A stretch of 63,112 bases of DNA, filler included, from Reclinomonas americana ATCC 50394 (taxonomy: Eukaryota), in NCBI GenBank assembly GCA_048213135.1. It is 3 parts of 2 records of this genome, joined end to end, with 100 filler letters (N's around TTAATTAATTAA, not from the genome) between each part and the next. Parts side by side here need not be neighbours in the genome. Positions count along the whole stretch, not along the records: positions 1 to 26,972 come from PS015049.1; 2 more parts are not named here. The stretch is one strand, 5' to 3'. Made by a program: the position numbers and the translations under genes. Below are positions 1-62,921 of the stretch, piece by piece; the first letter of the stretch is position 1, and each line of letters starts with the position of its first letter. The notes below the pieces were generated by a model. That model did not search any database. It was not told where the DNA came from and saw only the letters and a list, made by a program, of their open reading frames with translations.

Positions 1-3000
1 CGACGACGAAGACAACGACGACGATGACGGTGACGATGGCGATAGTGGAGCGTGGGGTGGAGTTGCGAAGGCGAAGAAAATGGACGTGGATCTGCCTGTG
101 CTCGACGAGAGCGCGGTTCCCGATGTGGTACGTGCCAGTCGCTGATGTGCACATGAACCGACGCTCACATTCCCGTCCAGAGCTTTCGAGGACCGTCGGC
201 CAAGGCTGAGTTGAACGAGTATTGCCAGACACATCGACTCTCCGTCCCGCCAGCTTATCTCGACTCCCAGTGGGGGCCGTCGCACGCACCGGAGTTTGAA
301 GCCTCCGTCAGCATTCGCCACGCGGCAGCTCCCGGTGGAGGTTCTTCCTTCCTGCCGCATATGTTCGTGCCAGTTTCTCTTTCGTGTCTCACGCTGCGAC
401 ATGCGGTGTCCATCTAGCGTTTGTTGGGCGCGGTTGGGGTCGATCGAAAAAGGATGCCCAGGGTCGAGCCGCCATTCAGGTTCTCAGTCTCATCAGGGGA
501 GCTGACTGTGGTGCCAGTGGCAGCGGTTACACCTCAGCTGTGGCGGCAACTGCGCCCAGAAAGAAGAGATACTCGCGCGAGGTATCGCAGCCTGTGGCTG
601 TCTCCCACTTTCCGTTGCTAAGCTGCTTGTTGTCAGGATCCTGCGGGCGAGCTCGTTCTCAGCGATTACGTCAGTGAGGCGCTCGGGAGGGCGCTTGCGC
701 AGGTGGACATGGTGCGTTCATCCCCCTGTATGATGTGTTGCACTCAGTCGCTTGCACTCATCGTGCGTCCGGCAGCGGAGCCTGGAGTTGCCGGTTGCTG
801 CTGCGGTGAGTCGCACGTGCCCTTCTTCTTTTGTGTGTGTTATCAATCTGCTGATCAGTGCGCGCAGAACTCCGGTGCAAATGCTTTTGTGGCCTCCGGA
901 GGCAATCGCACGGGGCCTGAGCGTGCGGCTGTGAGTCGTCGGCTTCTTGAGGCTCACGTGTCACGCATGTCATCGACAGAGCCCGCCTTTCTTCACCTCC
1001 AGGTTCTGTGAGAGTTCCTGCTTGATGCGTCCCGAGTCGATCCTCACCGTGTGGCGGGATGTGCAGGCGCAGCGGCAGTCGCTCCCTGTGTGGGCGAACC
1101 GGGAACAACTGCTTCACGCGATGACCAGTGAGGACTTTTACGTGTGCGTAGTGACCGGCGAGACGGGCAGTGGTAAGACGACGCAAGTGCCGCAGTTTGC
1201 GCTCGACGACGCGTTGCGGAGAGAGGTATGTGGCCTGCCAGTGTACTCCTCTGTGTATTGATGCTGATCTGTAGTGCACATAACACGATGCTCAGCGCGG
1301 TGCCGACACGCGAATTATTGTGTGCGAACCTCGTCGGCTCGCCGCAATCACTATCGCAGCGCGTGTGGCTGCCGAGCGCGGTGAGCCTCTGGGTCAGTCG
1401 GTCGGCTACTCGGTGCGCTTCGACTCGGTTCCACCCCGCGCAGAGGGTGGAACTATCGAGTTTGTCACCACCGGCACCCTTCTCCGTCGTCTTCAAGACA
1501 CGAAACAGCTAGATGGTGAGCATTCCGTGCCGACTCTGCCGCTCGGCGATCACCGCTAAACTGCAGTTTGACACGCGCAGGCATCTCGCATGTGTTTTTG
1601 GATGAGGCTCACGAGCGAACTATTGACGGCGACATGCTGCTCTACTTGCTGCGAGGTTTGACTCGCCGGAGTGGATCCCAATTGCGCGTTGTTGTCATGT
1701 CGGCCACCATCGACACATCGCTCTTCACCGACTACTTTGATGGCTGCCCGGAGATTGAAATCTTTGTCGACATGCACGAAGTGCAAGGTGAAGTGTCGCT
1801 GCTGTTGTCGACAACACGTGACTCTGTTTTGCTTCTCACGGCATGTGACAGACTTTTTCTTGGAGGACTGGTGAACTCTCGCGCGCTAACACACACGCAC
1901 ACACACTCAGCAGCGATCAGTCGACTGACTCTGTCGTTGTACTGTGCAGTGTGCGGCTGACAAACTTTAGAGGCGGTGAGCGTCCACGATCACAGTCACG
2001 AGTCTATTCGGACGACGACGTGAGTGTTCCTGCTGCCTTGCTTTCGTTCATCAGCAAGCTCATCTTGGCTGGACTTGTGCACAGCATGCGACAGAGAACC
2101 TCAACGTGCTATCGCGTGATGCGTATCCCGAGCCCATTTGTCGCGCCGTCGGGAGCATGGAGGAAGGCAACATACCGCCTGAGCTGGTCGCGGAGCTGAT
2201 CCTGTACGCTGCCTCGCGTCGGATCCCGCAGGCAGCCGTACTTGTCTTCTTGCCCGGCTGGTCCCACATTGACAGCCTCTATCATCATCTCTCGTCGCAC
2301 GTGACCATCGGTGAGTCTCGTGAGTCCGGTGACAAGCTGACCTGCGCTGCAACTGACCGATGTCTCTCACAACAAAGGCGATCGGGCGCGCTTCCTCCTC
2401 CTGCCTCTGCACTCGCAACTGACCCGCGACGACCAAAATGCCGTGTTCATGCCTGCGCCGCCAGGCGTGACCAAGGTACGCCACGCCATGTTCTCCTTGT
2501 AGCTACCATGCGCACATCTCTCACGACGGGTGTGACGCAGATTGTGCTGGCGACCAACATTGCCGAAACATCCTTGACGTTGCGTTCTCGCAGTCATCGC
2601 AACCTGACGCGTGCGCGGGAGCACTCATCCTTTTTGTTCCCACAGCATCGACGACGTTGTTTTTGTTATCGACACCGGGCTCGTGCGGGAAAAGGTGCAT
2701 CACGCACATCGAGCGCTGTCGTCGCTCGACGTCATGTGGATCAGCAAGGCCAGTGCGCAGCAGCGGCGCGGACGAGCGGGTCGTGTGCGCGACGGTTTTT
2801 GCTTCCGACTGTACACGCAAGCACGATACGAACGGTGCGCTGAGTCCTTTTGTTGTCGTGTTGCACGGCGGGTTGCTCACAAAGCCTCGCTACGCAGTTT
2901 CACCGAATACTCGACCCCCGAGATGCGCCGCATGGCACTCGACGAATTGTGCCTGAGCGTGCAGGCTCTTGGCCTCGGCGAAGCGCAACGCATTCTCTCG

Positions 3001-4400
3001 CAGACGATCGAGCCTCCGGATGCTGTGCAGGTCGAGAGCTCGGTGCGCAGACTGCAAGGTTGGTCGGCGGAGCGTGTGCGCGTGAGGCACGGTGGTCGTG
3101 GTGACTTGCACGAGCTCAGTCACTCCTCTTGGCAGGTTTGGGCGCCCTCAACGCCGCCGGAGAAATCACATCCCTCGGACGCCTCATGTCCAAGCTGCCG
3201 GTGGACGTGCGCCTCTCGCGAATGCTCATCACCGCCATGGTTCTTGGCTGCCGTGAAGAGGCGTTCCAGCTGGCGGCCATGCTGAGGTTTGTGTACATAT
3301 TCATTCATTTTGCGATTTCGGCACCTGTCTCTCATCCAACGCGCGAGCGCGCAGTTGTCGCGATCCATGGATTGCCACGCTCGACGAAGAGCAGCGAGAG
3401 CGCACTCGCAAATCGCGAGCGTATTTTGCGCGTGGACGCATGAGTGACCACCTGGCTCTCGTGCACGTACTGCAAGAGTGGATGGCGACAAGTCCTGCAG
3501 GTTCGTGGCGGCCATTCTCTGCTGGTTCTCCTGCTCGTACCCACTCGCAGTGATGATGCAGATCGGCGTGCGTTCTGTCGGCAACATGCAATGTCGCCGC
3601 ACGTGATGGAGACGGCGGAGAAGACGCTGCGACAACTGCACACAACAGTGGACGAGGAGCGTGCGCTGCGTGATCTGGGCGCCCCAATTGCAGAAGGCCA
3701 AATGCCGGCAGAGGTGATGCATACCACGAAAGGAGTTTCCGTTATTCCTATATCGCTGCGTGTTGTCGACTCTGATGCTCGCCTCCTCCTGTCTCCCAGG
3801 TGCCGTACGGGCTCCTGTGTGCGATTGCCTACACGGGCTTGCACCCGAATGTGGCAATTCACAATGACAAGAAGAAGTTCATGACGCGCGACAATCCGAA
3901 CACCATGCTGCACCCGTCGAGTGCCAACTTCCGCACGCACCACCACTACCCGCAGCGCACCTTCTTCTTTGATGAGATGACGCGGTCGTCGCAGGCATGT
4001 GTTGTCTGGCGGGGAGAGGGGGGGGGGGTTCGATAGTCTGCTCACTGTTGCTGGTGTGGCGCAGCAGCAAATCTTTTTGCGCAACTCGACCGTGGCCAGC
4101 CCGCTGCTGCTGGTTCTGTTTGGGTCGTTTGAGATTCGGTACCAGCAAGACAACCGCTACGACGAGCTCGACACCTTGCTGGAGCTCGACGGCTGGCTCC
4201 GCTTCCGCACGCGTCGCCGTGACATTGAGCTGGTGATCGGCCTGAAGCGTATACTCGACAGCGTGTTCGAGCGGCGAGTGAGCAGCGGCACCCGTGCACT
4301 GACGCAGGCTGACGAGCAGACTCAGAGGATCCTCCACGAGTTGCTGCCGGAGATCATGTTTGCCGACGAGTGGAGCTACACCAAGGAGCGTCCGTTGTAG
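1..4400 (+). CDS. DEAH/RHA-family RNA helicase with N-terminal dsRBD (DHX9/DHX30/DHX36-like), multi-exon, 5' end outside window
   Basis: Spliced exons give a dsRBD (LNEYCQ...GPSHAPEFEASV...GRGWGRSKKDAQGRAA), motif I GETGSGKTTQVPQF, motif Ia CEPRRLAA, DEAHER, MSATID, VFLPGW, LATNIAETSLT/IDDVVFVIDTG, SKASAQQRRGRAGRV and HA2/OB-type segments. Stop TAG at 4398-4400. Confidence 0.93.
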
Positions 4401-4602: not shown

Positions 4603-7600
4603 ATGGGTGGTGGCACTCCCTCCAAGCTCCTGCGCGTGATACACTGCGACGATACCGTAACTGACCTCTCGTGGTGTCCCGATCCTGTGGCCGCCACTGG
4701 CGACCTGACGCCTTTCGCCTTGCACAACTCCGCCTCCACTCCACAGCTTTCCTCTGTGGGCGCCGCCACGTCATCGTCCAGCTCACGCCGTTTACCAACG
4801 CGCTCCACATCAACCACCATGTCATCGACGGGAACTGCTGCAGCAAATGGAGGCCACACCAAGACCAATGCTGTTCTTGCATCAGCGTGGTGGGATGGTG
4901 CGTTTCTCTCCCACTCTGCGTGAGAGAGAGAGAGTGTGTGTGCGCGCGCACAACAGTGACTGAGTGTGCGCGTGCGTGTGTGTTCACAGGAACGATTCAC
5001 ATGAATGAGCCGTTCACGGGTGTCAAGTTGATGAAGACGCTTCGTGCGGGCGGTAAAACCGGTCATGCGGCGCCGGTCACTGCAGTCACGTGGACGCGCG
5101 ATGGCAAGTTTCTGATCACAGGCTCCAAGGTGAGCTGTTTTTTATTGCACCGTCCTTGTATGGTGTGTACATTTGGCGCCAACAAGCTGGTGGGCCATGG
5201 TGATGCTAGGATCACGTGGTTCGGATATTCGATCCTCGCAAGGCGACGTGCCTGTGGAGCTTTGAGGGTCACGAGCGCACGGTGCGCAGCGTGTCGGCGT
5301 CGGCGCGCGACGATCACATTCTGGCGTCGTGTTCGGGCGACAACTCGGTGCGCGTGTGGTCGCTGAGCAGTGGGCGCTGCTTGGCCACGATTTGGAGCTC
5401 GGGTGGTGAGACGCACGATGTGGAGATTGCGCCGTCAGGTGCGGTGCTGGCCTACGGCTCGTACGACGGCACTGCGACAGTGTGGTCGATCGATTCGCAG
5501 CAGACGGTCATTACGCTGCATGGTCATGAGGGCCCGGTGCTGGCGCTCTCGTGGGGTCCGCAGTCGCACCGCCTGGTGACAGCATCGGCTGACAAGACGC
5601 TGCGCTTGTGGAAGGTCGGTGATTTCTGCTTGCATCCATCTCTCTCATACAGGAGGATATACGGGCACATCTTTTATTATATTCTTGTTGTGTCGTTCGG
5701 CAGGTGGCCACTGGCAAGTGCTTGTTCCACTTGAAGGGTCACACACAGGCTGTGCGCGCTGTGGCCTACAGCCCTAACGGCACGCACATTCTCTCTGGTG
5801 CCATGGACGATTCGGTGCGCATCTGGAGCACCTCCAATGGCACATGCTTGCAGCGCCTTACCGACCATGTGCGTCGTGTGTGCGCATGTGCGCGTGTCCA
5901 ATTGCTTGCTCATTTCGTGGTGCGCCACAACAGGGCGACTGGATTCACTCAGTGTGCTTTAGCGCCGACGGTGCATTCTTTGCCACGGGCTCTCGCGATC
6001 TCACCGTGTGCGTGTACAAGCTCAAGCGCAAGCATCTCAACAAGTGTCGTTGCGCCATTGTTCAGCGCTCTCCGCCTTGCCATTGCGTTTCATACCGACA
6101 AAACCTTGTCTCTCTTTGCGAGCAGGGCCACCGACACCGCCGGGCGACGAAGACGCGACTCTTGTCGGTCCAGCAAGCAACTCACCCGACGACACCTCGG
6201 GTACGGGCTCCCACCCGTTGTCTCTCGCATCCTTCGCAGTCGCAGCTGACTCGCTCTCGTTGCACAGCCGCCCTCAACGTGGACAGTGGAGATGCCGACG
6301 GCGTTGACACGCTGCAGTCGATCACGCCGGCGGGACCACGTGGTTTGGCCGCCTCGACGCCGGTACTTGGCGTGCCGTCGCTATCACTATCCGCCAATCC
6401 AGTCGGCAAGGCGACTGCGAAACGAAGTGCGTACGTGCATTAATTAGCATGTTCTTGGCCAGCACTCCACACTCATGCGCAACATATTGCTTGCAGCTGC
6501 GGGAAACGATGGCGCTCTGCCAGACGCCGGCGGACTGTACGCTGGCGGTGTCAGCGGTGCCAGTTTGGATCAGCTGGCGGGTCTGGCGGGACCATCACGC
6601 GGGTCTGTGCCGCCGTCTCCCGAGCCTTCACCCCTCCGTTCACCGTCCAAGGCACCCATGTCACCACTCGCCAATTTGTCGGCCGACGGTGTGTCAAGTC
6701 TTGGATCGGCACTAACTACAGAGCTGGCCAGTCTAACGACGCGATATATTGCAGACCGCCGGAATCTGACCGACCTGGCAGCCCTGCTGGAGGGCGAGGC
6801 CTCCTCCGGAAGCACGACAACACTGATCCCCGAGAGTGAGAGAGAGTCATTGTTGCGCATCGTCCAGTTGGCTCGTTGCTTGCTGCTGGTGGATCGAGCC
6901 GATGTTTCGTGTCCATTTTTGCCGCCTCGTGTTGTTACAGTGTTCGCGTATGAGCGCTTACACATGCACTGGTGCAATGCAGGCCATGGGAGTGGATGTG
7001 CTGACGCTGGAGAAAAAATTCTTGCAGAGTTCGCGCCGAGTGTTTGGTGCCGAACAGGCGTTAGCTGTGTTGCTCGGCTCGCCTAGTGCGTTGTCGCGCT
7101 TGTCGTAGTTGAGGTGCTGCACGTTACTAACGATGAGCACTTGTGACAGCTGGTGAGAAGAAACGCATGCCACAATTGATCAAGAAGCGCGATAGATATC
7201 GACAAGACCATTGCGCGCTGCTGGGTCTGATCCGCGCCAACCTTGCCGATCGCCTGTCGCTGGTGCGCTCGATCGACACGCTTGGCAGTGTGCTGAATTC
7301 GCCACCGCCGTCCGCTCTCGACTCTGTGGCCGATGGTGACCTGGCTCCACCGTTCAGCGGTGCCGAATGGATCCGACAGTACGCACAGCCTATTGTGAGG
7401 GCACTCAAGGCGGCGTCAGTGTCGGTCGACGATGCCGAGTATCGGGCACTTGATGAGTCGCTGATATCGCAGGTTGGTGTTCCTCACAAAGGTTCGTCGT
7501 CTGCTTTTCTTGGTCGGAAGACCTGACTCCTTGTGTGTGTGACGCAGGCCATTCATCGTTCCACCTCGTGGTCGTCAACGGCATACGAGCGATGTCTTTC

Positions 7601-10600
7601 GTTCCTGCCGGCGCTGCTGCGCACCGAGATGCCACTGACACACATGCTGCATCGCATGGCGGATGCGCACGAGGTGTTCACGCAGCTGACGACGACAGTG
7701 CACGAAGGCGCTGGTGAGGCTCTCGGTCGTCTGAATGAGGCACTGAAGACGTTTGTCCGCATGCTGGAGTTGTTGCGTACGGAGCGCGACGAAGACGATG
7801 AGGCGCAACCGGATCACGCCAAGCGGCAGCAAAGAGTTGCGTAGAGAGGTCGCGAGAGGAGAATGGCGTGTGGCGTGCGACTCACCGTTGTTACAGATTA
7901 TGCAAATGGAAGCGCGCATCTGTGTGCACGAGGATGAGCTGCTCGAGATGCGTGCGAAGGTAGCTCACTTGGCGAAGCGTGGCTTCCCCGAATACGTGTT
8001 CCAGTTGCAGCAGTCGCTGATCGACAAGGTTTCGTGGTGGCATGTACTGTTGCTTTGGCTCAGTTGCTGTCGCTCACCCACAGATGCTGCAGGTACCATT
8101 TGGCCTGCACCTGGTCGACGATGTAGAATTTGGTGCGTTGTTGCTCTTCTTCGTGTATGTTTGTACGTTTGTTCACTGACGATGGGCTGGATGAATGTGC
8201 ATGCAGTAATGGACACGGAACCCGGCGACTACACCATTGTGAATCAGATCATGAGTCGGCATCCGGTCGCCGTCATTCGGTGCGTGTGTGTGTGTTTCCG
8301 TTTGTTTGTCTCTGCGATATGCTTAAGCAGCAGCGTTGCCACGCACAGTATGGCCAACAAGTACTACTTTGCCAAAGAGTACAACATTCGGTCTGCTGAT
8401 CAGTGTCTGTGGCTGAGCAACGAGGTCAACACGCTGGCTCAGCTGCGCCATCCAAATATCGTGCGACTGAAGGGTTTCATGTCGGATCACACGTCCAAGT
8501 TTCGCATGCACTCCCCTTCGTGCATTTTTCGCGACGCAAACTCTCACGAAGCGGGGCGTCTGCAGGTCGCACTACGTCACTGTGATGGAGGACGTTGGCT
8601 CAGTCAATCTCCTGCGCGCACTGCCGACCATGGAGCTTCCGCAGATTCGCCGGGCCTTTGCTCAGCTCCTGCACGTGAGTCGTTCTGCGCTGCTGTGCAA
8701 CCTAGCTGCTCGCATGCTGCTGATCAAGAGTCTTGTGTACACAGGCCGTCGCGTACATGCACGATCAGGGCGTGGTGCATGCCAATTTGCACCCGGGCAA
8801 TGTTATTTACTCGTCCGACCGCGGCGTCATTGTCATTTCGTTTACATCCGCCCAGTTCCGCGAGCCTTTTAATGTTGATACGGGTCAGTCGGTGGCTTCC
8901 TCTTTCGTGTCTGCCTATCCCTTTGCGATGCTCACTTTGCGCTTGCAGCTGTCTCACCGCGAGCGCGGTACGGTGCCCCCGAAGTCCTTCTGCGACGGTC
9001 GGCACCGGAGCCGCCGTGCGACGTTTTCGCCGTTGGCATCATGCTGTTTGACGCCTTCACATCGACCTCGTACTCACTGGATATCGACCCGGCCGCCGGT
9101 GTTGTCATGCCGCGCATCAACGAGGCTCGTGCCGAACTGGGTCTGGAGCCGCTGGAGCAAACGCTGGCCGACGAACTTGACGCTGCGATTGCTCTGATGG
9201 TGCACATTCACTTGCGCTGTTGTCGTTGCTGCGCATTTTGCTGATTCGATCTTGCCACCACAGACGCACATCTCGCCCGGCAAGAGACCCACAGGGTGGG
9301 AGTTGCTGGCCATGCCAGTGTTCCGCGCTGTGCATCGTGGCGACGACGGCAAGGATGATGTTGCGTGCAAGCAGCAGCAGCAGCAGAGGATAAAGTTGAC
9401 ACGTGTTCTTGTCGCTGATGATTGCGTTCCGTGATCCCAACAGCCCATGGTGCGCTTCTGGACTGCGCTCTCTCGTGCGCGGCGCGATGCACCGTCACTC
9501 CTGCAGGCGCTGGCGATCGACGAGGTGGAGCTGAGCACGTCGCCGTTGCAGAAGCTGCGATTCGACAGCCGAACCATCTTTAATCACCTGGTGATTGAAC
9601 ACACGAGACGCGCCACCGACGCGGGTCATCCCGACCAGCGCCTGTTTGGACACGCGCATCACGCGCTCGTCAGTGTTGCGTGGCACGACTCGCTGCTGAT
9701 ATTGTTTGTGTGGCTGCTGACTTGCTGCTGCACAGTTCCTCCGGCGAGTGGTCGAACAGTCGCCGGCCATTGAGTTCCTCGGTTCGGGATCGTACGTCGG
9801 GTCTGGGCAGACGGCGTTCCCGGCGCCGTCGAGACGCGCGGGCAACCCGGTGTTGGCCAGCTCCATTTTTACTCTGTTTGGGCGTGTGCTGGCCAAGATG
9901 CTGGTGCTCGGCTGCAAGGTCCCCCGCAAGGTGAGAATGGCGATCTCTCCTCGTCGCCAACGATGATGGCACTCACGTTGTCTTGCTTGTGTTGCAGTTG
10001 CTGCCTCGGTTCCTGTTCAAGGTGCTGGCCACAACAAAGGCAGTGGAGGCGCCGGTGCTGGCCGACTTGCTGCCCGACCTGCCGGCCATTGCGCGGCACT
10101 TGAGATTGCTGCGATGTACGGTGGTCGACTGTTTGCACTTGTCGTTCACCGAGGGCATCGACGAGATGGGCCACTTTAGCGAAATCGACCCCGAGTTTGT
10201 GCCCTCGCACGCGTCGGACGGTGAGTCTTTTTGTGTGCTGTGTATAGGGCGACATGTACATATCCCGTGTTGCACAGAGGTAACGGAGGAGAATAAGGAA
10301 GAGTACATTCGTGCCGTTGTCGCTTCACAGTTGATTGGTTTCGGTCGGCGGGAGGTGAGGTCATGCTTGTCGCTTCTCTCACCTTTTGTGTGTCACTGAG
10401 TGTGCGTACATGCAACGACAGGCGTACTTGCGCATTCGAGCGGCCATGATGGAGGCTCTGGCGGTCAACGGGCGAGAGGAAGGGTGCGTGCTGCTGTCGA
10501 CGTTTATCTTGTTCATTCCCTGTGTTAGCTAATGCGTTTCTCTCGCAGATCGCTGTGGTGGGCCGCAGAGATCATGGAGGCCGACGACCTTCGTGGTCTG

Positions 10601-10972
10601 CTGGAGCACGCCGAGCAGGTGTCAGCGGAGGAACTGATTCACCACATTCGCTTCCATCCCGAGTTCGCCGCCAAGCGCAGCCCGGTGCCTGAGCAACTGT
10701 CGGAGACGCTAAGGGCGTGGGAACGCGAAAGCCGCCAGCATCGCTTGATCGACTTTGTCGAGTTTGTGGCCTCGCAGACACGCTTGCCGGTGCGCGACGC
10801 CTTTGCCGAGCGCGTGTCCGTCTCGGTAGTTCCACTGGCTGCGCCGGCGCACTTGCCGGAGAGCCGACCAGTGCACGCCGAGCTGTTCCTGCCAGTGGCC
10901 GGCTACGGATCGACTGCGGCACTTCGCGAGCGACTCGAGCGGGCCATGGATGGCATTTTAGAAGACGAGTGA
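4603..10972 (+). CDS. Multidomain protein: WD40 repeats + low-complexity/helical linker + kinase-like domain + C-terminal HECT-like domain, both apparently catalytically inactive
   Basis: WD40 repeats (GHERTVRSVS...SCSGDNSVRVW, GHEGPVLALSW...ASADKTLRLW, GHTQAVRAVAYSP). Kinase fold at about 8200-9330 (FAKE, NEV..LAQLRHPNIVRL, HANLHPGN, YGAPE, DVFAVG). HECT fold at about 9440-10972 (LFGRVLAKML, VTEENKEEYI, FVEFVASQTRLP, LPESRPVHAELFLP..YGSTAALRERLERAM). The junctions I checked can be joined in frame by GT-AG introns. Confidence 0.8.
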
Positions 10973-11044: not shown

Positions 11045-14000
11045 ATGTCGAGCGTGGGCGACGACAGCGTGTTGTCGACGCTGCGCAGCGTAAGCGAGTC
11101 GTTCTTTGTGCAACATGCATCGCTGGCCGCCACTGTGCACGCGTTGCCTTCATTCGATGCATGTCGCACTCTGGTCGGCACTCTCGTCGAGCATCATCTG
11201 AGCGGCGTTGCGTGCATTCTCTTTGGCGCCAGTAATGCATGTGACTGTGTGTAGGTGATAGGGAAGCCTCACCGCACCGCTTCACTCCACAGTTGCGCGT
11301 GTCGCGAGCGTGGGCGAGTGCGCTGCGTGTGGAGCACTTGTCGGAGTGGATGCATGCACAGCGGTGGTCGCACAGCGACGCCAGTGCATTCCTTTGTCTC
11401 TCGTTGCTGGCTGGCCTCGCGTCGCGCTGTGGAGAAGAGGCGGAGGGAGAGCAGAGAGGAATGGTGGCAAAGGAGGAGATCACGTGGACAGTCGTGTGCA
11501 TTCCGAGCTTTGCCGCGTACCGTTTGGCCCTGGGCGGCGAGTTCTTCCGCACGAGAGAGCTGGGTTCGTTCGCCTTTCCCACCAAGTGTATTGTGATGAT
11601 GGTTGAGTTGCGAGTGCTGATGGATGCACAGCCGCACGGCTCTTGCTGGAGAGTGCATTGCGATCGTCTGCGTTGCTGGATCGAATCGTTGCCGAGTGCA
11701 GTGCAGCGCTGCTGACCACCGACGAACAGGCGGTCTCACTGATCGGCTACAGTGTCGATGCCACTGCCGTGATCCACGGCGTCGGCAGCGGGGACAAGAC
11801 GCCGTACGTGACGGGTTGTGCATCGGTGGTGCGATCGATGGCCGACGCTCTGCTCGCCGGCACGCTCTCGGTACGCTGTTTCTCTTCTCCTCCGAGCGCC
11901 CTTGTTGACTGTTGATCTCATCATACCTTGCGTGCCAGTGTTCACCATCGATCGCCGCACTGCTGGAGGAGCAACTTGACAGCTTGGCACACGGCAGTGG
12001 ATCCGGTGCGGTGCGAGAGGCACGACGGTGGTACTTGTGCCCGTTGGTGTCGGCCGTGCTGGCGCACACTCCCGACTTTGTGCAACGGAACCAACTGGCG
12101 CAGGCATGTTGTGACACCGTGCTTGAGGTGTCAAGTGGCTGCTCACTGACATGTCGTGTCGCAGGTGGTTTTCCGCTCGCTGCTGTCGAGCCACTCATTC
12201 GGACCGTGGCACCGTGCAGCATTCTTCTCCTGCGTATTGCAGCTGTCGACTGAGCTCGCAGACGGATTGGGCACGCGCACTGGTTCGCGTCGCATTCTTA
12301 ATCGAAAAGTCTTGTTCGGTTCAGCAGCTCATTTGCTGCGTGGCAGGTGTGGATGTGCGCTTGGACGCCAGCTTCTGGAAGATGCTGCAGACCGGCATGT
12401 GCACCACCGAGTACGGTGAGCACATGGCGGCCGCTGCCGTCCTGCGTCGCATCATTCGTCTGTCGAGTGAGGCGGCGGCGGCAGAGGACGGTCGAGTCGC
12501 ATGGATACCGTTGCGTTGTCGGCGATGACAGAATATGCGCATTCTGCTCTGACTTGTGTGCTTTTCTCTCTCTCGCCAGAGAGTTCTCGTGGAGTCTGGC
12601 CGCCTGTGCACGACTGGAAGAGATGTGGGCACGCTACTTTCTGGTGTACACTACCGTTTCGGAGAACAGTCCGCACTTGTTGAAGGTGCGATGAGAGCAA
12701 GCGCTGAATTGCAGGCAGCCACTTGCTCATTGCCACAGTAACAGGCCATGTTTCGCTCCATTGATTCGCTATTGCCGACGGCGGAGGGCCGTAGTGTCGA
12801 CGGTTTGTGCTGATCGCGGTTCCTCTCATCGGTGTATGACAGACTGACAGACTGGCTCACGCAGCGAGTGTGGCGCCGCTGCACTTCTCCTGGATCGGAG
12901 TGCTATACATGCGCGGCTTTGCGCATGTCAACATGGCGGTCGTTCGACAGGTGACGAACCACGCACTGGCGTTCGCCTTTGATGCTCACCCACCGGGTTA
13001 CATGCCGGCTCATTTCGTGCACGGTGAGAAGTCCTTACCCAAATGGCGGAGGAGGGGAGTGTGCCGCTAAAGGTGGCTCTGCGCAGAGGTCATGTTACCG
13101 CACTTGGACATGAGTCGCTCCCTGCAATATTCGGCCGACATTCCTGCGGTGACCACGCACTTTCTGGCGCGATACATCGACAACGCAGTCGACCAGGTGC
13201 GTTATCGATGTGGTGCTGCATTCTCAAGTTAGGGGTTGTTTACTTACTGTGCACTACAGGTGGCCACGGCTTGCGGGCTCGTGGAGGCTGTGCGATCATT
13301 TGACAAACCCGAGCTGTGGACCACCATGTCCATTGTGACAGCGATTCGTCAGGCGGCCGGCACGGCTGCCAAGCGACACGTAGCTCTCGTAAACACTGAA
13401 CTGTTGCAGAGCATCACGATGCTCATGGATCTGCGTGATCGCGGCTGGTGAGTTGTCGCCGTGTGTGTGACCTGTGATTTGGCCCACAATAACACGAACT
13501 AGGACCATTGCGCTGGAGGCGAGACTCGATGTTATTCTCATGGATATTGTCTCGATTGGTCGCACGCCGACATTCGATGACACCCTGGCACTCGTGGACC
13601 TGGTGCGTTTTGTCGCACGCTTGAACCCGCGCGTCGTGGCGGCTCGCGAGGTGCCCGGAGTCGCTCGTTTCTGCGAGTGGGTGACCTCGGTCTGTGGTAT
13701 TCTTCGTTCTCATGGCATCCGCAATCATCTGTCTCACTTTGCGGCGCAGGCGCTGTCGTCTGTGTCGGAAACGATTGTCGATGAAGCCTTGCACGAGCTA
13801 TTTGCCAACAACGGTGAGCATTGACACGTGCTGCGTGTCAACACGCATCCTCCTCACTCATTGGTTGGTCGCCCTGCTTTTGCAGTACCGTCGTCGGCCG
13901 TGAGTCGTGGCTTGATGATGCTGATCTACTTTGTGGAGCCTCTGCAGACGCGTCTGACACGACTCGTTTGCGAGAAGACCGCCGAGTTGTACAGGTAGAG

Positions 14001-26972: not shown

Positions 26973-27072
26973 NNNNNNNNNNNNNNNNNNNNNNNNNNNN
27001 NNNNNNNNNNNNNNNNTTAATTAATTAANNNNNNNNNNNNNNNNNNNNNNNNNNNNNNNNNNNNNNNNNNNN
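26973..27072. other. Artificial scaffold-joining spacer
   Basis: 44 N + TTAATTAATTAA (stops in all six frames) + 44 N = 100 nt. Identical structure at 58900-58999. Confidence 0.97.
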
Positions 27073-50183: not shown

Positions 50184-51312
50184 CTGCACTGCGTGAGTCG
50201 AGTAAAATCGATCCGTAAACTAGTGAAGCATGGTCAGAATCGGCCAGATCACTGCACACCCGCATCAGCCAGAGGCAGCTGGATAGGTGGCATCCAATTG
50301 CTGAATCATTGTCTAGCATCGAATGCCCGAGTTCATCCTTTAATCGCAGTCGCACTCAGTCGGACCATCGACTTGTCTTCCACACTGCTGTTAGCAACGA
50401 GGGTGTTATCTTGTTTGGTTGNNNNNNNNNNNNNNNNNNNNNNNNNNNNNNNNNNNNNNNNNNNNNNNNNNNNNNNNNNNNNNNNNNNNNNNNNNNNNNN
50501 NNNNNNNNNNNNNNNNNNNNNNNNNNNNNNNNNNNNNNNNNNNNNNNNNNNNNNNNNNNNNNNNNNNNNNNNNNNNNNNNNNNNNNNNNNNNNNNNNNNN
50601 NNNNNNNNNNNNNNNNNNNNNNNNNNNNNNNNNNNNNNNNNNNNNNNNNNNNNNNNNNNNNNNNNNNNNNNNNNNNNNNNNNNNNNNNNNNNNNNNNNNN
50701 NNNNNNNNNNNNNNNNNNNNNNNNNNNNNNNNNNNNNNNNNNNNNNNNNNNNNNNNNNNNNNNNNNNNNNNNNNNNNNNNNNNNNNNNNNNNNNNNNNNN
50801 NNNNNNNNNNNNNNNNNNNNNNNNNNNNNNNNNNNNNNNNNNNNNNNNNNNNNNNNNNNNNNNNNNNNNNNNNNNNNNNNNNNNNNNNNNNNNNNNNNNN
50901 NNNNNNNNNNNNNNNNNNNNNNNNNNNNNNNNNNNNNNNNNNNNNNNNNNNNNNNNNNNNNNNNNNNNNNNNNNNNNNNNNNNNNNNNNNNNNNNNNNNN
51001 NNNNNNNNNNNNNNNNNNNNNNNNNNNNNNNNNNNNNNNNNNNNNNNNNNNNNNNNNNNNNNNNNNNNNNNNNNNNNNNNNNNNNNNNNNNNNNNNNNNN
51101 NNNNNNNNNNNNNNNNNNNNNNNNNNNNNNNNNNNNNNNNNNNNNNNNNNNNNNNNNNNNNNNNNNNNNNNNNNNNNNNNNNNNNNNNNNNNNNNNNNNN
51201 NNNNNNNNNNNNNNNNNNNNNNNNNNNNNNNNNNNNNNNNNNNNNNNNNNNNNNNNNNNNNNNNNNNNNNNNNNNNNNNNNNNNNNNNNNNNNNNNNNNN
51301 NNNNNNNNNNNN

Positions 51313-51790
51313 GTCCTCCTCCTCCTCCTCGTCCTCCTCGTCGAGCAAGACGCAGACGACCAAGTCGGGCTCGTCGACCACCACCACCACCACGACGACG
51401 ACCGAGTCCGTGTCCACTCGTGCCACGTACTCGTCTTCCTCGTCGGGCTCGTCCTCGCGTGCTGCGGGAGCCGGTGGACCGCCGCAGGGCATGCCAAGTT
51501 GCGGCGACGGCGGTGGGCGTGTGTATGTGTGTGTGTGTCACTCATCCTCTGTTGCGCAGGTTGGGTGACACCCGACATTTTCCAGCGCATGATGGGCGAC
51601 CCGGAACTCATCAAGATCCTCACCAACGAAAAGGTCCGCCAGTCTTCGCCGACCATCTCCATCTACGCTTCTCCCTCACCCTATTTATTTTTTGCGCCAC
51701 AGATTGCACGCGCAATTGCCGAGATCTCTGCCGACGGCAGCGCGTTTGCGAAATACCGAAACGATCCAGAGGTCACGGTGCCTTTACGAA
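51313..51790 (+). CDS. ST13: Hsc70-interacting protein (Hip) C-terminal STI1/DP domain fragment, opposite in orientation to the rest of the gene
   Basis: GPPQGMP...MMGDPELIKILTNEK|IARAIAEISADGSAFAKYRNDPE. Small contig between N gaps. Confidence 0.7.
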
Positions 51791-52156
51791 ATTCTCCCAG
51801 TTGGTCGGGCAGGCCATTGATCCTCAATGAGCGCCGACATTATCACTCGACACTNNNNNNNNNNNNNNNNNNNNNNNNNNNNNNNNNNNNNNNNNNNNNN
51901 NNNNNNNNNNNNNNNNNNNNNNNNNNNNNNNNNNNNNNNNNNNNNNNNNNNNNNNNNNNNNNNNNNNNNNNNNNNNNNNNNNNNNNNNNNNNNNNNNNNN
52001 NNNNNNNNNNNNNNNNNNNNNNNNNNNNNNNNNNNNNNNNNNNNNNNNNNNNNNNNNNNNNNNNNNNNNNNNNNNNNNNNNNNNNNNNNNNNNNNNNNNN
52101 NNNNNNNNNNNNNNNNNNNNNNNNNNNNNNNNNNNNNNNNNNNNNNNNNNNNNNNN

Positions 52157-53080
52157 GCCGACGAGTTGGGGGCGCCGCCGCCCGTGATGCGCCGCAGCAA
52201 CTCGGTGGAGGCCGCGTCAGGCTCATACCGCAGCGCCGTCTGCAGATCCTCCTTGGCCTTGGCCTCCTCGTGCAGCGCATAGTGGCACGCTCCACGCACA
52301 TGATAGGCCAGCGGGAAGTCCGGATTCAACTGCAACGCCATGTCACAGTCGCGCACCGCATGCCGAAAGTGCCCGAGCTCCCGCAGACACACGGCGCGCT
52401 TGCCGTACAACACCGCCGAGCGCGGCTGCAACAGAATGGCATTGGTGAAGTGCCGCACCGCGCCCAGCAGATCGCCCTGCTGCTTGGCTTCGCCACCAAG
52501 CAGCTTCTCCTCCTGACTGCGCTGCTTCATCTCGGACGTGCACTCCAGATTCGGGTCACCCATGAGCGGCGCATCGCCGGTTTCCTCAGCTGGAGGCGAT
52601 GGTGGTGGCGAGGGGGGAGAAGCAGCAGCAGCCGCAGCAGCGGGAGGAGGCGGAGGAGACGCAGAGGAAGCAGCAGGTCGCGGACGCGGTGGTGGTGGTG
52701 CAGACGACTCGGCGTCACTGCGCGCGACTTTTTCTCTGCGACATCATCATCATCAACACCAAATGTAAACGCGCGCGCGCACACTACACAGACACACGCT
52801 CACTCCTTGCCTCTCTCTCTCTCTCACACACATATCTCTCTCTGTTGTCTCTGTGCTCACATTTTGTACTCGGCTGGGATGGTGGCACCCCATTCCAGCA
52901 GAAAGTCCTTGAAGAACGACAGCTGTGGCGAGTGCACCATCTGTGGGTGCTTGCGGATGACCTGAACAAGAGGAAGAAAAGGGGGAGTTTATGAGGAAAA
53001 AGACAAGTAAGTCGCACAAGAAAAGACACGCGCGACGAAACATTCAACAGTGTCTTGAGTTGCGCAAAGTCTTGACTCAT
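52157..53080 (-). CDS. ST13: Hsc70-interacting protein (Hip): N-terminal dimerisation region and TPR domain
   Basis: MSQDFAQLKTLLN|VIRKHPQMVHSPQLSFFKDFLLE; MGDPNLE; TPRs FTNAILLQPRSAVLYGKRA...AVRDCDMALQLNPD...AYHVRG. Confidence 0.85.
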
Positions 53081-53421
53081 GAGAGAGCGAGAGAGAGAGA
53101 GAGAGGCCAGTGAGGACGTTGACGCGCGCGCAAAAAGCACCTATGCGGACAGTCTTGCTCGCCGCGGAGAAACTGTCCATTCACATCATCGCGTGCATCA
53201 CTTGCGGGTGCGTTGCTCCCTCTCTGCCTCCTCTCTCTCTGTGTGTGTGTCGAACGTACTCTCCTGCGTGCACCTCTCCCTGTGCACGCACGCACGCTGA
53301 ACGATCTGTTGTTCTGTGAGAGGAGATTGACGGAGATAGAGAGAGTGCATCTTTTGTGCGACTCTCTCTCACACGCGCGTGTGTGTGTGTGTGTGTACGT
53401 GTGCAGATCGTTGCTGTTGTT

Positions 53422-54260
53422 ATGATTGAGCAGGCACTGCGAAGGTGCGTCTGCGCTTGTGTGTGTGTGTGTGTGTGGATTCTTGTCTCCGGAATTGACG
53501 CGATGATGTGTATGTGCACGCAGGCTGACGGTGGGTGCGATTGCACTGGGCGCGCTGGGCTCGCTGGCGCAGTCGTCGCTCTACACAGGTGCGCGNNNNN
53601 NNNNNNNNNNNNNNNNNNNNNNNNNNNNNNNNNNNNNNNNNNNNNNNNNNNNNNNNNNNNNNNNNNNNNNNNNNNNNNNNNNNNNNNNNNNNNNNNNNNN
53701 NNNNNNNNNNNNNNNNNNNNNNNNNNNNNNNNNNNNNNNNNNNNNNNNNNNNNNNNNNNNNNNNNNNNNNNNNNNNNNNNNNNNNNNNNNNNNNNNNNNN
53801 NNNNNNNNNNNNNNNNNNNNNNNNNNNNNNNNNNNNNNNNNNNNNNNNNNNNNNNNNNNNNNNNNNNNNNNNNNNNNNNNNNNNNNNNNNNNNNNNNNNN
53901 NNNNNNNNNNNNNNNNNNNNNNNNNNNNNNNNNNNNNNNNNNNNNNNNNNNNNNNNNNNNNNNNNNNNNNNNNNNNNNNNNNNNNNNNNNNTGTGTGTGT
54001 CATCACCGAGTGCGCGCATGTGCAGACATCACTCACTCACGCACTTCCTCGCGACACACACAGTGGAGCCTGGTCACCGTGCGGTCATCTTCGATCGGTT
54101 CCAGGGAGTCAAGGATGTGGTCATTGGTGTGTGTATGAGAGAGAAGAGAGTGTGTGTGTGACGACATGTTGACTCACGTGTCAAACAGGCGAGGGCATGC
54201 ACTTCCGCATCCCGTGGGTGCAGCGGCCGATTCCGTTTGATGTGCGCACTCGTCCACGGT
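53422..54260 (+). CDS. PHB1: Prohibitin, 5' exons (spanning an N gap)
   Basis: [17 protein letters not shown]...[23 protein letters not shown]..|[23 protein letters not shown]. Confidence 0.9.
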
Positions 54261-54517
54261 GCGTGCATGCATGAGTGTCTGCTTTTCACTGTTCAATTGC
54301 ACACTNNNNNNNNNNNNNNNNNNNNNNNNNNNNNNNNNNNNNNNNNNNNNNNNNNNNNNNNNNNNNNNNNNNNNNNNNNNNNNNNNNNNNNNNNNNNNNN
54401 NNNNNNNNNNNNNNNNNNNNNNNNNNNNNNNNNNNNNNNNNNNNNNNNNNNNNNNNNNNNNNNNNNNNNNNNNNNNNNNNNNNNNNNNNNNNNNNNNNNN
54501 TGTCAGCTCAAAAGACG

Positions 54518-54850
54518 CACCACCACAGCCTTCATGACTTCGTTGCCAATGGACGGCAGCACACGTTCGTCGTAATCCAGACCCAAGTTCTGCGCACACA
54601 TGCTCCGTCACAACCTGCGCTTCGCCGAGAGAAGAACCACCTGAAGCAACAGACCTGGAAAATGGCCGGCAGACGCTCGACTTCCGGGCGGTGCAGCACA
54701 CGCAGCGTGATCGAGATGTTCTGCAGATCTGCACCAAACACACACACACACACACACACAATGAGCTCTCTCTCTCTCACTCCACACTCTCGCACAGTCT
54801 CTCTCTCTCTCGTGCACACCCTTTGTTCCGGTGGTCGTGTTGATCGGTCT
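54518..54850 (-). CDS. PHB1: Prohibitin, middle exons, on an inverted contig
   Basis: TTTGTK|DLQNISITLRVLHRP...LPAIFQ|NLGLDYDERVLPSIGNEVMKAVV on the minus strand; supplies the segment missing between the flanking plus-strand parts. Confidence 0.9.
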
Positions 54851-55651
54851 GCACAAGAATGTGNNNNNNNNNNNNNNNNNNNNNNNNNNNNNNNNNNNNN
54901 NNNNNNNNNNNNNNNNNNNNNNNNNNNNNNNNNNNNNNNNNNNNNNNNNNNNNNNNNNNNNNNNNNNNNNNNNNNNNNNNNNNNNNNNNNNNNNNNNNNN
55001 NNNNNNNNNNNNNNNNNNNNNNNNNNNNNNNNNNNNNNNNNNNNNNNNNNNNNNNNNNNNNNNNNNNNNNNNNNNNNNNNNNNNNNNNNNNNNNNNNNNN
55101 NNNNNNNNNNNNNNNNNNNNNNNNNNNNNNNNNNNNNNNNNNNNNNNNNNNNNNNNNNNNNNNNNNNNNNNNNNNNNNNNNNNNNNNNNNNNNNNNNNNN
55201 NNNNNNNNNNNNNNNNNNNNNNNNNNNNNNNNNNNNNNNNNNNNNNNNNNNNNNNNNNNNNNNNNNNNNNNNNNNNNNNNNNNNNNNNNNNNNNNNNNNN
55301 NNNNNNNNNNNNNNNNNNNNNNNNNNNNNNNNNNNNNNNNNNNNNNNNNNNNNNNNNNNNNNNNNNNNNNNNNNNNNNNNNNNNNNNNNNNNNNNNNNNN
55401 NNNNNNNNNNNNNNNNNNNNNNNNNNNNNNNNNNNNNNNNNNNNNNNNNNNNNNNNNNNNNNNNNNNNNNNNNNNNNNNNNNNNNNNNNNNNNNNNNNNN
55501 NNNNNNNNNNNNNNNNNNNNNNNNNNNNNNNNNNNNNNNNNNNNNNNNNNNNNNNNNNNNNNNNNNNNNNNNNNNNNNNNNNNNNNNNNNNNNNNNNNNT
55601 CTCGTTCTTCTCGTTCCTTTCTCCTTTTGCTCACCTTCTCCCTGCTCCACA

Positions 55652-58899: not shown

Positions 58900-58999
58900 N
58901 NNNNNNNNNNNNNNNNNNNNNNNNNNNNNNNNNNNNNNNNNNNTTAATTAATTAANNNNNNNNNNNNNNNNNNNNNNNNNNNNNNNNNNNNNNNNNNNN
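58900..58999. other. Artificial scaffold-joining spacer
   Basis: 44 N + TTAATTAATTAA + 44 N. Confidence 0.97.

Positions 59000-59039: not shown

Positions 59040-62921
<3,882 letters not shown>

Follow-up and report, generated by a model that had tools for sequence, protein, structure and literature searches.

A highly divergent HECT-like domain with valine in the catalytic cysteine column, next to a predicted pseudokinase domain, in Reclinomonas americana

We analysed a 63,112-nucleotide stretch of DNA (hereafter the window) from Reclinomonas americana ATCC 50394 (GenBank assembly GCA_048213135.1), made up of three parts of two records joined by 100 filler letters each, with positions 1 to 26,972 taken from PS015049.1. 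The last exon of a multi-exon gene on its plus strand encodes a highly divergent HECT C-lobe, in which valine occupies the column of the catalytic cysteine and from which cysteine is absent altogether. Directly upstream, in the same open frame, lies a kinase-like domain whose catalytic motifs are also altered. We propose, with a probability of roughly 72%, that this HECT-like module is non-catalytic and belongs to a pseudokinase scaffold protein encoded by an intact gene; the domain would have a complete HECT fold that can no longer form a ubiquitin thioester.

The intron before the last exon closes at CAG 10546-10548, and the exon begins at 10549 in phase 2, with a Gly codon split across the junction (‘gg’ at 10482-10483 and ‘a’ at 10549). 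The stop codon is at 10970-10972. The extent of the exon (10549..10972) and its Val codon (GTG, 10871-10873) lie where the original prediction, made from the DNA without database searches, had placed them. When the exon alone was aligned with the Pfam hidden Markov model for HECT (PF00632), a check which that prediction had proposed, it matched at E 2.6e-6 with 27.7 bits, over the curated cut-off of 23.9, with exon residues 7-133 on profile positions 176-297 of 306.

Searches with the single exon sequence were less productive: phmmer against the PDB returned no HECT protein, only chance rows at E 0.7-0.9, because the sequence is too divergent. Against 1.84 billion cluster representatives, phmmer gave two matches, P0001 and P0002. 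P0001 was rejected as a relative, being a 1425-residue protein with about 21 identical 67-residue repeats, whose E of 4.5e-9 against exon residues 85-108 is a chance match summed over repeats; multi-stretch matches in that representative search therefore need inspection. P0002 is a 235-residue open reading frame (ORF) on a 1992-nt Logan contig, pre-annotated with PF00632 and the only member of its cluster, and is 33-34% identical to the last exon. We aligned the exon with P0002 (pairwise alignment A1) and built a two-sequence profile from the alignment. Searched against the PDB, the profile matched 29 sequences at E<=10, 26 of them HECT E3 ubiquitin ligases, with the HUWE1 C-lobe (3.3e-4) and NEDD4 (1.8e-3) as the best matches, followed by SMURF2, Ufd4, WWP2, E6AP and HECTD3. 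An ESM Atlas feature search for language-model look-alikes returned HECT clusters in 30 of 30 cases (top value 0.97, 211 of 256 features), a result that we graded as weak support, the recognition value of the query being 2115, under the 2300 mark.

AlphaFold2 applied to A1 gave a model with a mean predicted local distance difference test score (pLDDT) of 69.8 and a predicted template modelling score of 0.68. The model has the alpha/beta fold of HECT C-lobes, and the order of its helices and strands agrees with what we take to be the order in that family. The structure search suggested in the original prediction was answered in two ways: Foldseek against the PDB gave 37 rows at E<=10, with no HECT among them and none at E<=0.001, whereas in a full VIA-align scan of the model against the PDB, ranks 1-18 were all HECT C-lobes. 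Together, the Pfam model, the profile matches in the PDB and the fold evidence agree with the prediction of a HECT C-lobe whose Cys column holds Val.

The motif around that column, LPESRPVHAELFLP, spans residues 102-115 of the 140-residue translation. In A1 it lies opposite LPVAHACACALRLP of P0002, which retains the Cys, and in the profile alignments Val108 falls on the Cys of LPSAHTCFNQLDLP (HUWE1) and on that of the NEDD4 motif; the block is free of gaps against all three proteins, as had been claimed for the HECT consensus. The neighbouring loop columns are also changed, with Arg106 in place of His two residues upstream of Val108, and Pro for Thr. According to the accessible text of PMC11354881, the His two residues before the HECT Cys is conserved and has a role. 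We also considered a frameshifted reading as a source of a Cys near 10871 and rejected it, the +1 frame giving a Cys-rich peptide without a HECT motif.

The claimed lack of Cys and of a near-terminal Phe in the last exon was likewise confirmed. There are no Cys among its 140 residues, and Phe is found only at residues 35, 39, 69, 72, 85 and 113; the exon ends ..GILEDE, with Leu at position -4 and a five-residue tail past the last helix. A Phe near position -4 of HECT proteins matters for substrate ubiquitination. P0002 ends ..AFLW, and the tail of the window protein is shorter and without Phe. As to whether homologues keep the Cys, the single relative found, P0002, does so; it also has the ..AFLW tail, and the Cys loss in the window protein is therefore derived.

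The defining feature of HECT ligases is a covalent intermediate in which ubiquitin is attached to one cysteine. The last exon lacks each of the catalytic features by which the family is defined (loop Cys, upstream His and near-terminal Phe), while the motifs retained are structural (LP..L.LP, GY and RERLE.A). Kept fold motifs, replaced catalytic columns and an intact frame form a pseudoenzyme pattern, and we file the protein as HECT-like, that is, as a HECT homologue failing the defining catalytic features and not as a HECT ligase. In every characterised HECT, as far as the available text of PMC3673628 goes, the C-lobe carries the thioester; this C-lobe has no Cys, and the domain therefore cannot carry one.

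Five exons upstream of the last exon would supply the HECT N-lobe. An ORF at 9998-10354, which covers two of them and a 57-nt in-frame intron, gave a HECT match at E 0.003 on profile positions 61-149. The match is in collinear order with that of the last exon but does not reach the cut-off on its own, and presumably corresponds to the E2-binding part of the N-lobe. The other three exons, at 9444-9668, 9736-9930 and 10422-10483, had no Pfam match. A bilobed HECT-like domain is likely on this evidence. The intron in question (10221-10277) is a multiple of three long and has no in-frame stop, so its retention would insert 19 residues and leave the frame unbroken.

The kinase-like domain, in seven exons, made three collinear matches to Pkinase (PF00069), on profile positions 18-72, 108-146 and 162-196, each at E ~1e-3 and with scores (18.1, 19.2 and 19.2 bits) that are all below the 31.7-bit cut-off. 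Its 46-residue exon 8745-8882 matched 366 PDB sequences at E<=10, and all 60 of the 60 among the matches listed were kinases; the exon next to it matched 134 PDB sequences. The alphaC Glu of kinases aligns, and the beta3 Lys may either survive, within a FAK motif, or have disappeared, with VAVIR as the corresponding motif. Neither the Asp of HRD nor that of DFG is present, and no GxGxxG motif was visible on reading the translation of the modelled N-terminal strand region. We predict that the domain is a pseudokinase. One intron within its N-lobe (8280-8348, 69 nt) is again a multiple of three without an in-frame stop, and its retention would insert 23 residues with the frame unbroken.

Eighteen frame-compatible GT..CAG introns link the last exon to the N-lobe and kinase-like exons, and the reading frame is unbroken from 6268 to 10972. 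The exons of the linker that precedes the kinase-like domain have positive coding scores in the modelled frames, and the linker ORFs 6448-7086, 7137-7526 and 7527-7844 have no Pfam match. Further upstream, repeated WD40 units (PF00400) were found in three ORFs between 5210 and 6443, at E 4.5e-22 (ORF 5210-5734), 3.6e-12 (ORF 5623-6249) and 6.8e-6 (the third), and seven blades could be counted by eye in the model translation. With this part included, the model has 25 exons and 1565 residues, with no internal stop or frameshift. Its 24 introns are canonical GT..AG introns of 46-92 nt (median 67), 22 of which cannot be read through; 23 of the 24 acceptors are CAG and one is TAG, and the donor is GTGCGT in 7 of 24. 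The GC (guanine plus cytosine) content is 0.53 in introns versus 0.61 in exons, and 0.71 at third codon positions of exons (GC3). The model was built by hand, with a dynamic-programming gene finder as a cross-check only; 10 of the hand-read introns recurred in its output, but it is crude, always joining everything and misplacing several introns known from homology. TACTAAC, the yeast-type branch-point consensus, stands about 30 nt ahead of the acceptor in the intron at 7086-7149 (+), and 9 of the 24 modelled introns have CTRAY-like motifs at a distance of 8-50 nt upstream of the acceptor.

The WD40 part and the downstream exons probably belong to one gene. Nothing links them except the frame-compatible introns 6046-6125, 6201-6267 and 6427-6496, and it is less probable, if still a serious alternative, that there are two genes: a WD40 protein ending at 6249 or 6443, and a separate pseudokinase–HECT-like gene starting at ATG 6475. 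Coding scores for 6126-6200 are positive in no frame, spacers elsewhere in the window are short (~200 nt before 4603 and 72 nt after 10972), and the putative intron 6427-6496 contains both a frame-0 stop (6441-6443) and the ATG at 6475 in the downstream frame, which also counts against our proposal of a single scaffold protein. That stop and ATG would, however, be just 31 nt apart, and the intron is of typical length (70 nt), ends in CAG and starts, in the phase required, with GTGCGT, the commonest donor of the gene; in frame 0, the exon before it (6268-6426) has a coding score that stays positive as far as this donor. The reading of the HECT-like exon is the same with one gene or two.

The adjoining pseudokinase and possible WD40 propeller alter what the protein most likely is, compared with a C-lobe considered by itself. 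We suggest that Val for Cys, Arg for His, a Cys-free lobe and a short tail without Phe would together mean the loss of ligase chemistry, that partners would dock on the WD40 and pseudokinase parts, and that the HECT-like part would keep binding functions only, for E2, E2~Ub, non-covalent ubiquitin or a P0002-type HECT paralogue that is active. That the protein is expressed, that it lacks ligase and kinase activity and that it has such binding partners are expectations drawn from the sequence. A more ambitious proposal, which we regard as doubtful, is that of a genuine, expressed HECT pseudoenzyme of full length, fused in cis to the pseudokinase and WD40 parts. It would regulate ubiquitin transfer with no thioester involved, for instance through its hold on E2~Ub or ubiquitin, or through pairing with an active P0002-type paralogue that it controls.

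Several points weigh against the scaffold proposal. The C-lobe model is of moderate quality: the other four models had pLDDT values of 42-51, and the loop around Val108 is at ~51. No exon matched HECT profile positions ~1-60 in Pfam, and AlphaFold2 on ORF 9998-10354 as a single sequence gave an unusable model (pLDDT 40.3), so the N-lobe may be incomplete. The gene model was put together by hand and is predictive, with an ambiguous WD40 junction, and a missing canonical Cys alone may not mean that every activity is absent. Orthologues were not found in the representative, word-indexed or metagenome contig searches. Word-indexed homologue searches gave none of 1937 candidates for the last exon at ‘longer’ lengths, P0002 only (of 7194 candidates) for A1 at ‘near’ lengths and none of 8000 scored for A1 at ‘longer’ lengths, and scans of metagenome contigs yielded 496 pattern matches for A1 and 277 for P0002, of which none was confirmed.

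An alternative is that the gene is decaying or unexpressed: a duplicated kinase–HECT gene would have lost both catalytic centres and be on its way to becoming a pseudogene, leaving the Val functionally meaningless. Both enzymatic domains are indeed degenerate, and divergence has gone so far that the 1.84 billion representatives yielded a single relative. Decay is nonetheless improbable, given that a 1565-residue frame survives across 25 exons and 24 canonical introns without an internal stop or frameshift, that the GC3 of the exons and their positive coding scores fit maintained coding sequence, and that fold-defining motifs are held in common with P0002 at 33-34% identity.

We consider it very unlikely that the domain is still an enzyme, using a relocated or non-Cys nucleophile (Ser105 of the loop or an N-lobe Cys) or a RING-like direct transfer from E2 to substrate. 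Catalytic residues can migrate, according to the part of the pseudoenzyme review PMC10211241 available to us, and a Ser is kept three residues before the Val, with three Cys in the modelled N-lobe. However, the C-lobe, the part that carries the thioester in characterised HECTs, has no Cys; the conserved upstream His is Arg, the tail is shortened and without Phe, and nothing in our results gives positive support for catalysis. It is hardly conceivable that the Val is an artefact of assembly, sequencing or frame calling, for although the 10 N runs in the window mark a draft scaffold, there is no N inside the gene, the HECT match stays in a single frame on both sides of the Val, and GTG differs from the Cys codons TGT and TGC at all three positions, which, with four further catalytic-loop columns that differ, makes a single-base error or sequencing slip not credible.

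The scaffold protein that we favour can be compared with several known systems. HECT E3s (HUWE1, NEDD4, E6AP and UBE3C) have the same C-lobe fold and order of secondary structure, and their LP..L.LP strand, ‘FvTG..rvP’-equivalent helix and C-terminal helix also occur in the window protein; part of their N-lobe has a collinear, sub-threshold match in the window protein, and the domain is likewise C-terminal in a large protein. They differ from it in the catalytic columns, where the window protein has Val for Cys and Arg for His, and in its Cys-free lobe and five-residue Phe-less tail. High HECT divergence is common to the window protein and to G2E3 and GL-Bikonta, the likeness being one of architecture only. 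G2E3 itself retains its Cys, and it has PHD/RING-like fingers, whereas the window protein has a kinase-like domain and possibly WD40 repeats. In the available text of Grau-Bove et al. 2013 (PMC3673628), G2E3, GL-Metazoa and GL-Bikonta make up an extremely divergent HECT class, the G2E3 HECT is called non-functional (citing Brooks 2008), and divergent HECTs fused to “unusual” kinase domains are noted in Naegleria and Ectocarpus. These kinase–HECT fusions are the closest precedent for the architecture; that text does not say whether they lack the Cys or have dead kinase motifs.

Two HECT proteins of Leishmania mexicana, HECT13 and HECT14, are named “possible pseudo-HECTs”, with no catalytic Cys found, in the accessible part of Burge et al. 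2020 (PMC7647121); these are partial, whereas the window protein has a whole C-lobe and collinear N-lobe exons. Tribbles pseudokinases offer a proposed functional analogy, not a relative: in them, according to the excerpt available of PMC10211241, a kinase fold without the DFG Asp serves as a scaffold for ubiquitin ligation and delivers substrates to the ligase COP1. Tribbles recruits a separate, active RING E3, COP1, by a short motif, whereas the E3-like module of the window protein is in cis and predicted to be dead. HERC1 resembles the full window model in having WD40 repeats and a C-terminal HECT in one polypeptide; in the text seen of PMC3673628 it is an animal-specific protein with RLD, SPRY and WD40 domains that ubiquitinates the tumour suppressor TSC2, and, unlike the window protein, it has RCC1-like and SPRY domains and no kinase domain.

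The original prediction held that inactive HECTs are rarely described, and the literature searched, which left most subscription journals outside it, is in keeping with this: the precedents found were only G2E3 and the two partial Leishmania HECTs, and neither a HECT of full length without the Cys nor a fusion of pseudokinase and pseudo-HECT was found described in it. The accessible text of the 2023 review PMC10211241 agrees, stating, with reference to Murphy 2017, that the HECT family appears to be without pseudoenzymes. The window protein is a candidate for a natural HECT pseudoenzyme. If this is true, a complete Cys-less HECT fold in an intact gene of 19 to 25 exons would be a natural counter-example to the view that the family has none, and would offer a way into what the HECT fold does besides catalysis, for example in E2 binding, in oligomerisation and through ubiquitin exosites. 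The fused pseudokinase would be a second dead enzyme in the chain, echoing the Naegleria and Ectocarpus kinase–HECT fusions, which have been noted and never studied. It is not rare for protist genomes to contain divergent, lineage-specific domains that have lost catalytic residues, which limits the value of the finding, as do the partial precedent in the literature and the lack of orthologues in our searches.

Coordinates of the features described here and of the upstream neighbour are collected in Table 1.

Table 1. Features of the HECT-like gene and its surroundings, in window positions.
Feature	Position	Strand	Basis or remark
Last exon with its stop codon (140 residues): N-lobe end, hinge and entire C-lobe of HECT	10549..10972	+	
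Val108 of last exon (codon GTG), catalytic Cys column	10871..10873	+	A1; HUWE1/NEDD4 profile alignment
HECT-like N-lobe, five exons	9444-9668, 9736-9930, 9998-10220, 10278-10354, 10422-10483	+	hand-read splice junctions
Introns near HECT-like exons	9931-9997, 10221-10277, 10355-10421, 10484-10548	+	hand-read
Kinase-like domain, seven exons	8084-8132, 8207-8279, 8349-8519, 8566-8674, 8745-8883, 8949-9199, 9264-9359	+	directly upstream of HECT-like region (8084..9359)
HAN replacing HRD, catalytic Asp to Asn	8778..8786	+	‘vvhanlhpgnv’ vs MAP kinase ‘vvhrdlhpgni’
SFT replacing DFG, metal-binding Asp to Ser	8838..8846	+	‘visfts’ aligned with ‘isdfgi’
Linker, low-complexity, helical/disordered	6126-6200 (uncertain), 6268-6426, 6497-6903, 6983-7085, 7150-7472, 7548-7835, 7897-8028	+	
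WD40 propeller, five exons	4603-4897, 4990-5129, 5210-5614, 5704-5868, 5934-6045	+	
Helicase gene, multi-exon, DEAH/RHA-type, upstream neighbour	900-4400	+	stop 4398-4400
N runs	26973-27072; 50422-55599 (five runs); 58900-58999; 61767-62052		

The window is a draft eukaryotic scaffold, as seen from its N runs and short-intron genes: its GC content is ~58%, and its genes are broken up by numerous short GT..AG introns. Scans for tRNA genes and Rfam families found none in the window, and tblastn with the exon and with P0002 found no HECT paralogue there, returning the exon itself and one row at E 0.06. The N runs total 2982 bases and explain why the GC content seems to fall to 0.28-0.43 at 50-56 kb. 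Two pairs of 44-base N runs, 12 bases apart, resemble masked or templated gaps.

The upstream helicase gene was recognised from an ORF at 3105-3443 that matches HA2_N (E 4.5e-8) and HA2_C (E 4.3e-5) in Pfam, and from GETGSGKT and DEAHER motifs in the ORF translations; a spacer of ~200 nt separates its stop from the ATG at 4603. On the other side, an ORF at 11045-11254 (+) has no Pfam match and a clearly positive coding score, and the next gene probably has it as its first exon. The ATG of this ORF lies 72 nt past the stop of the HECT-like gene, which suggests that intergenic spacers in the window are very short.

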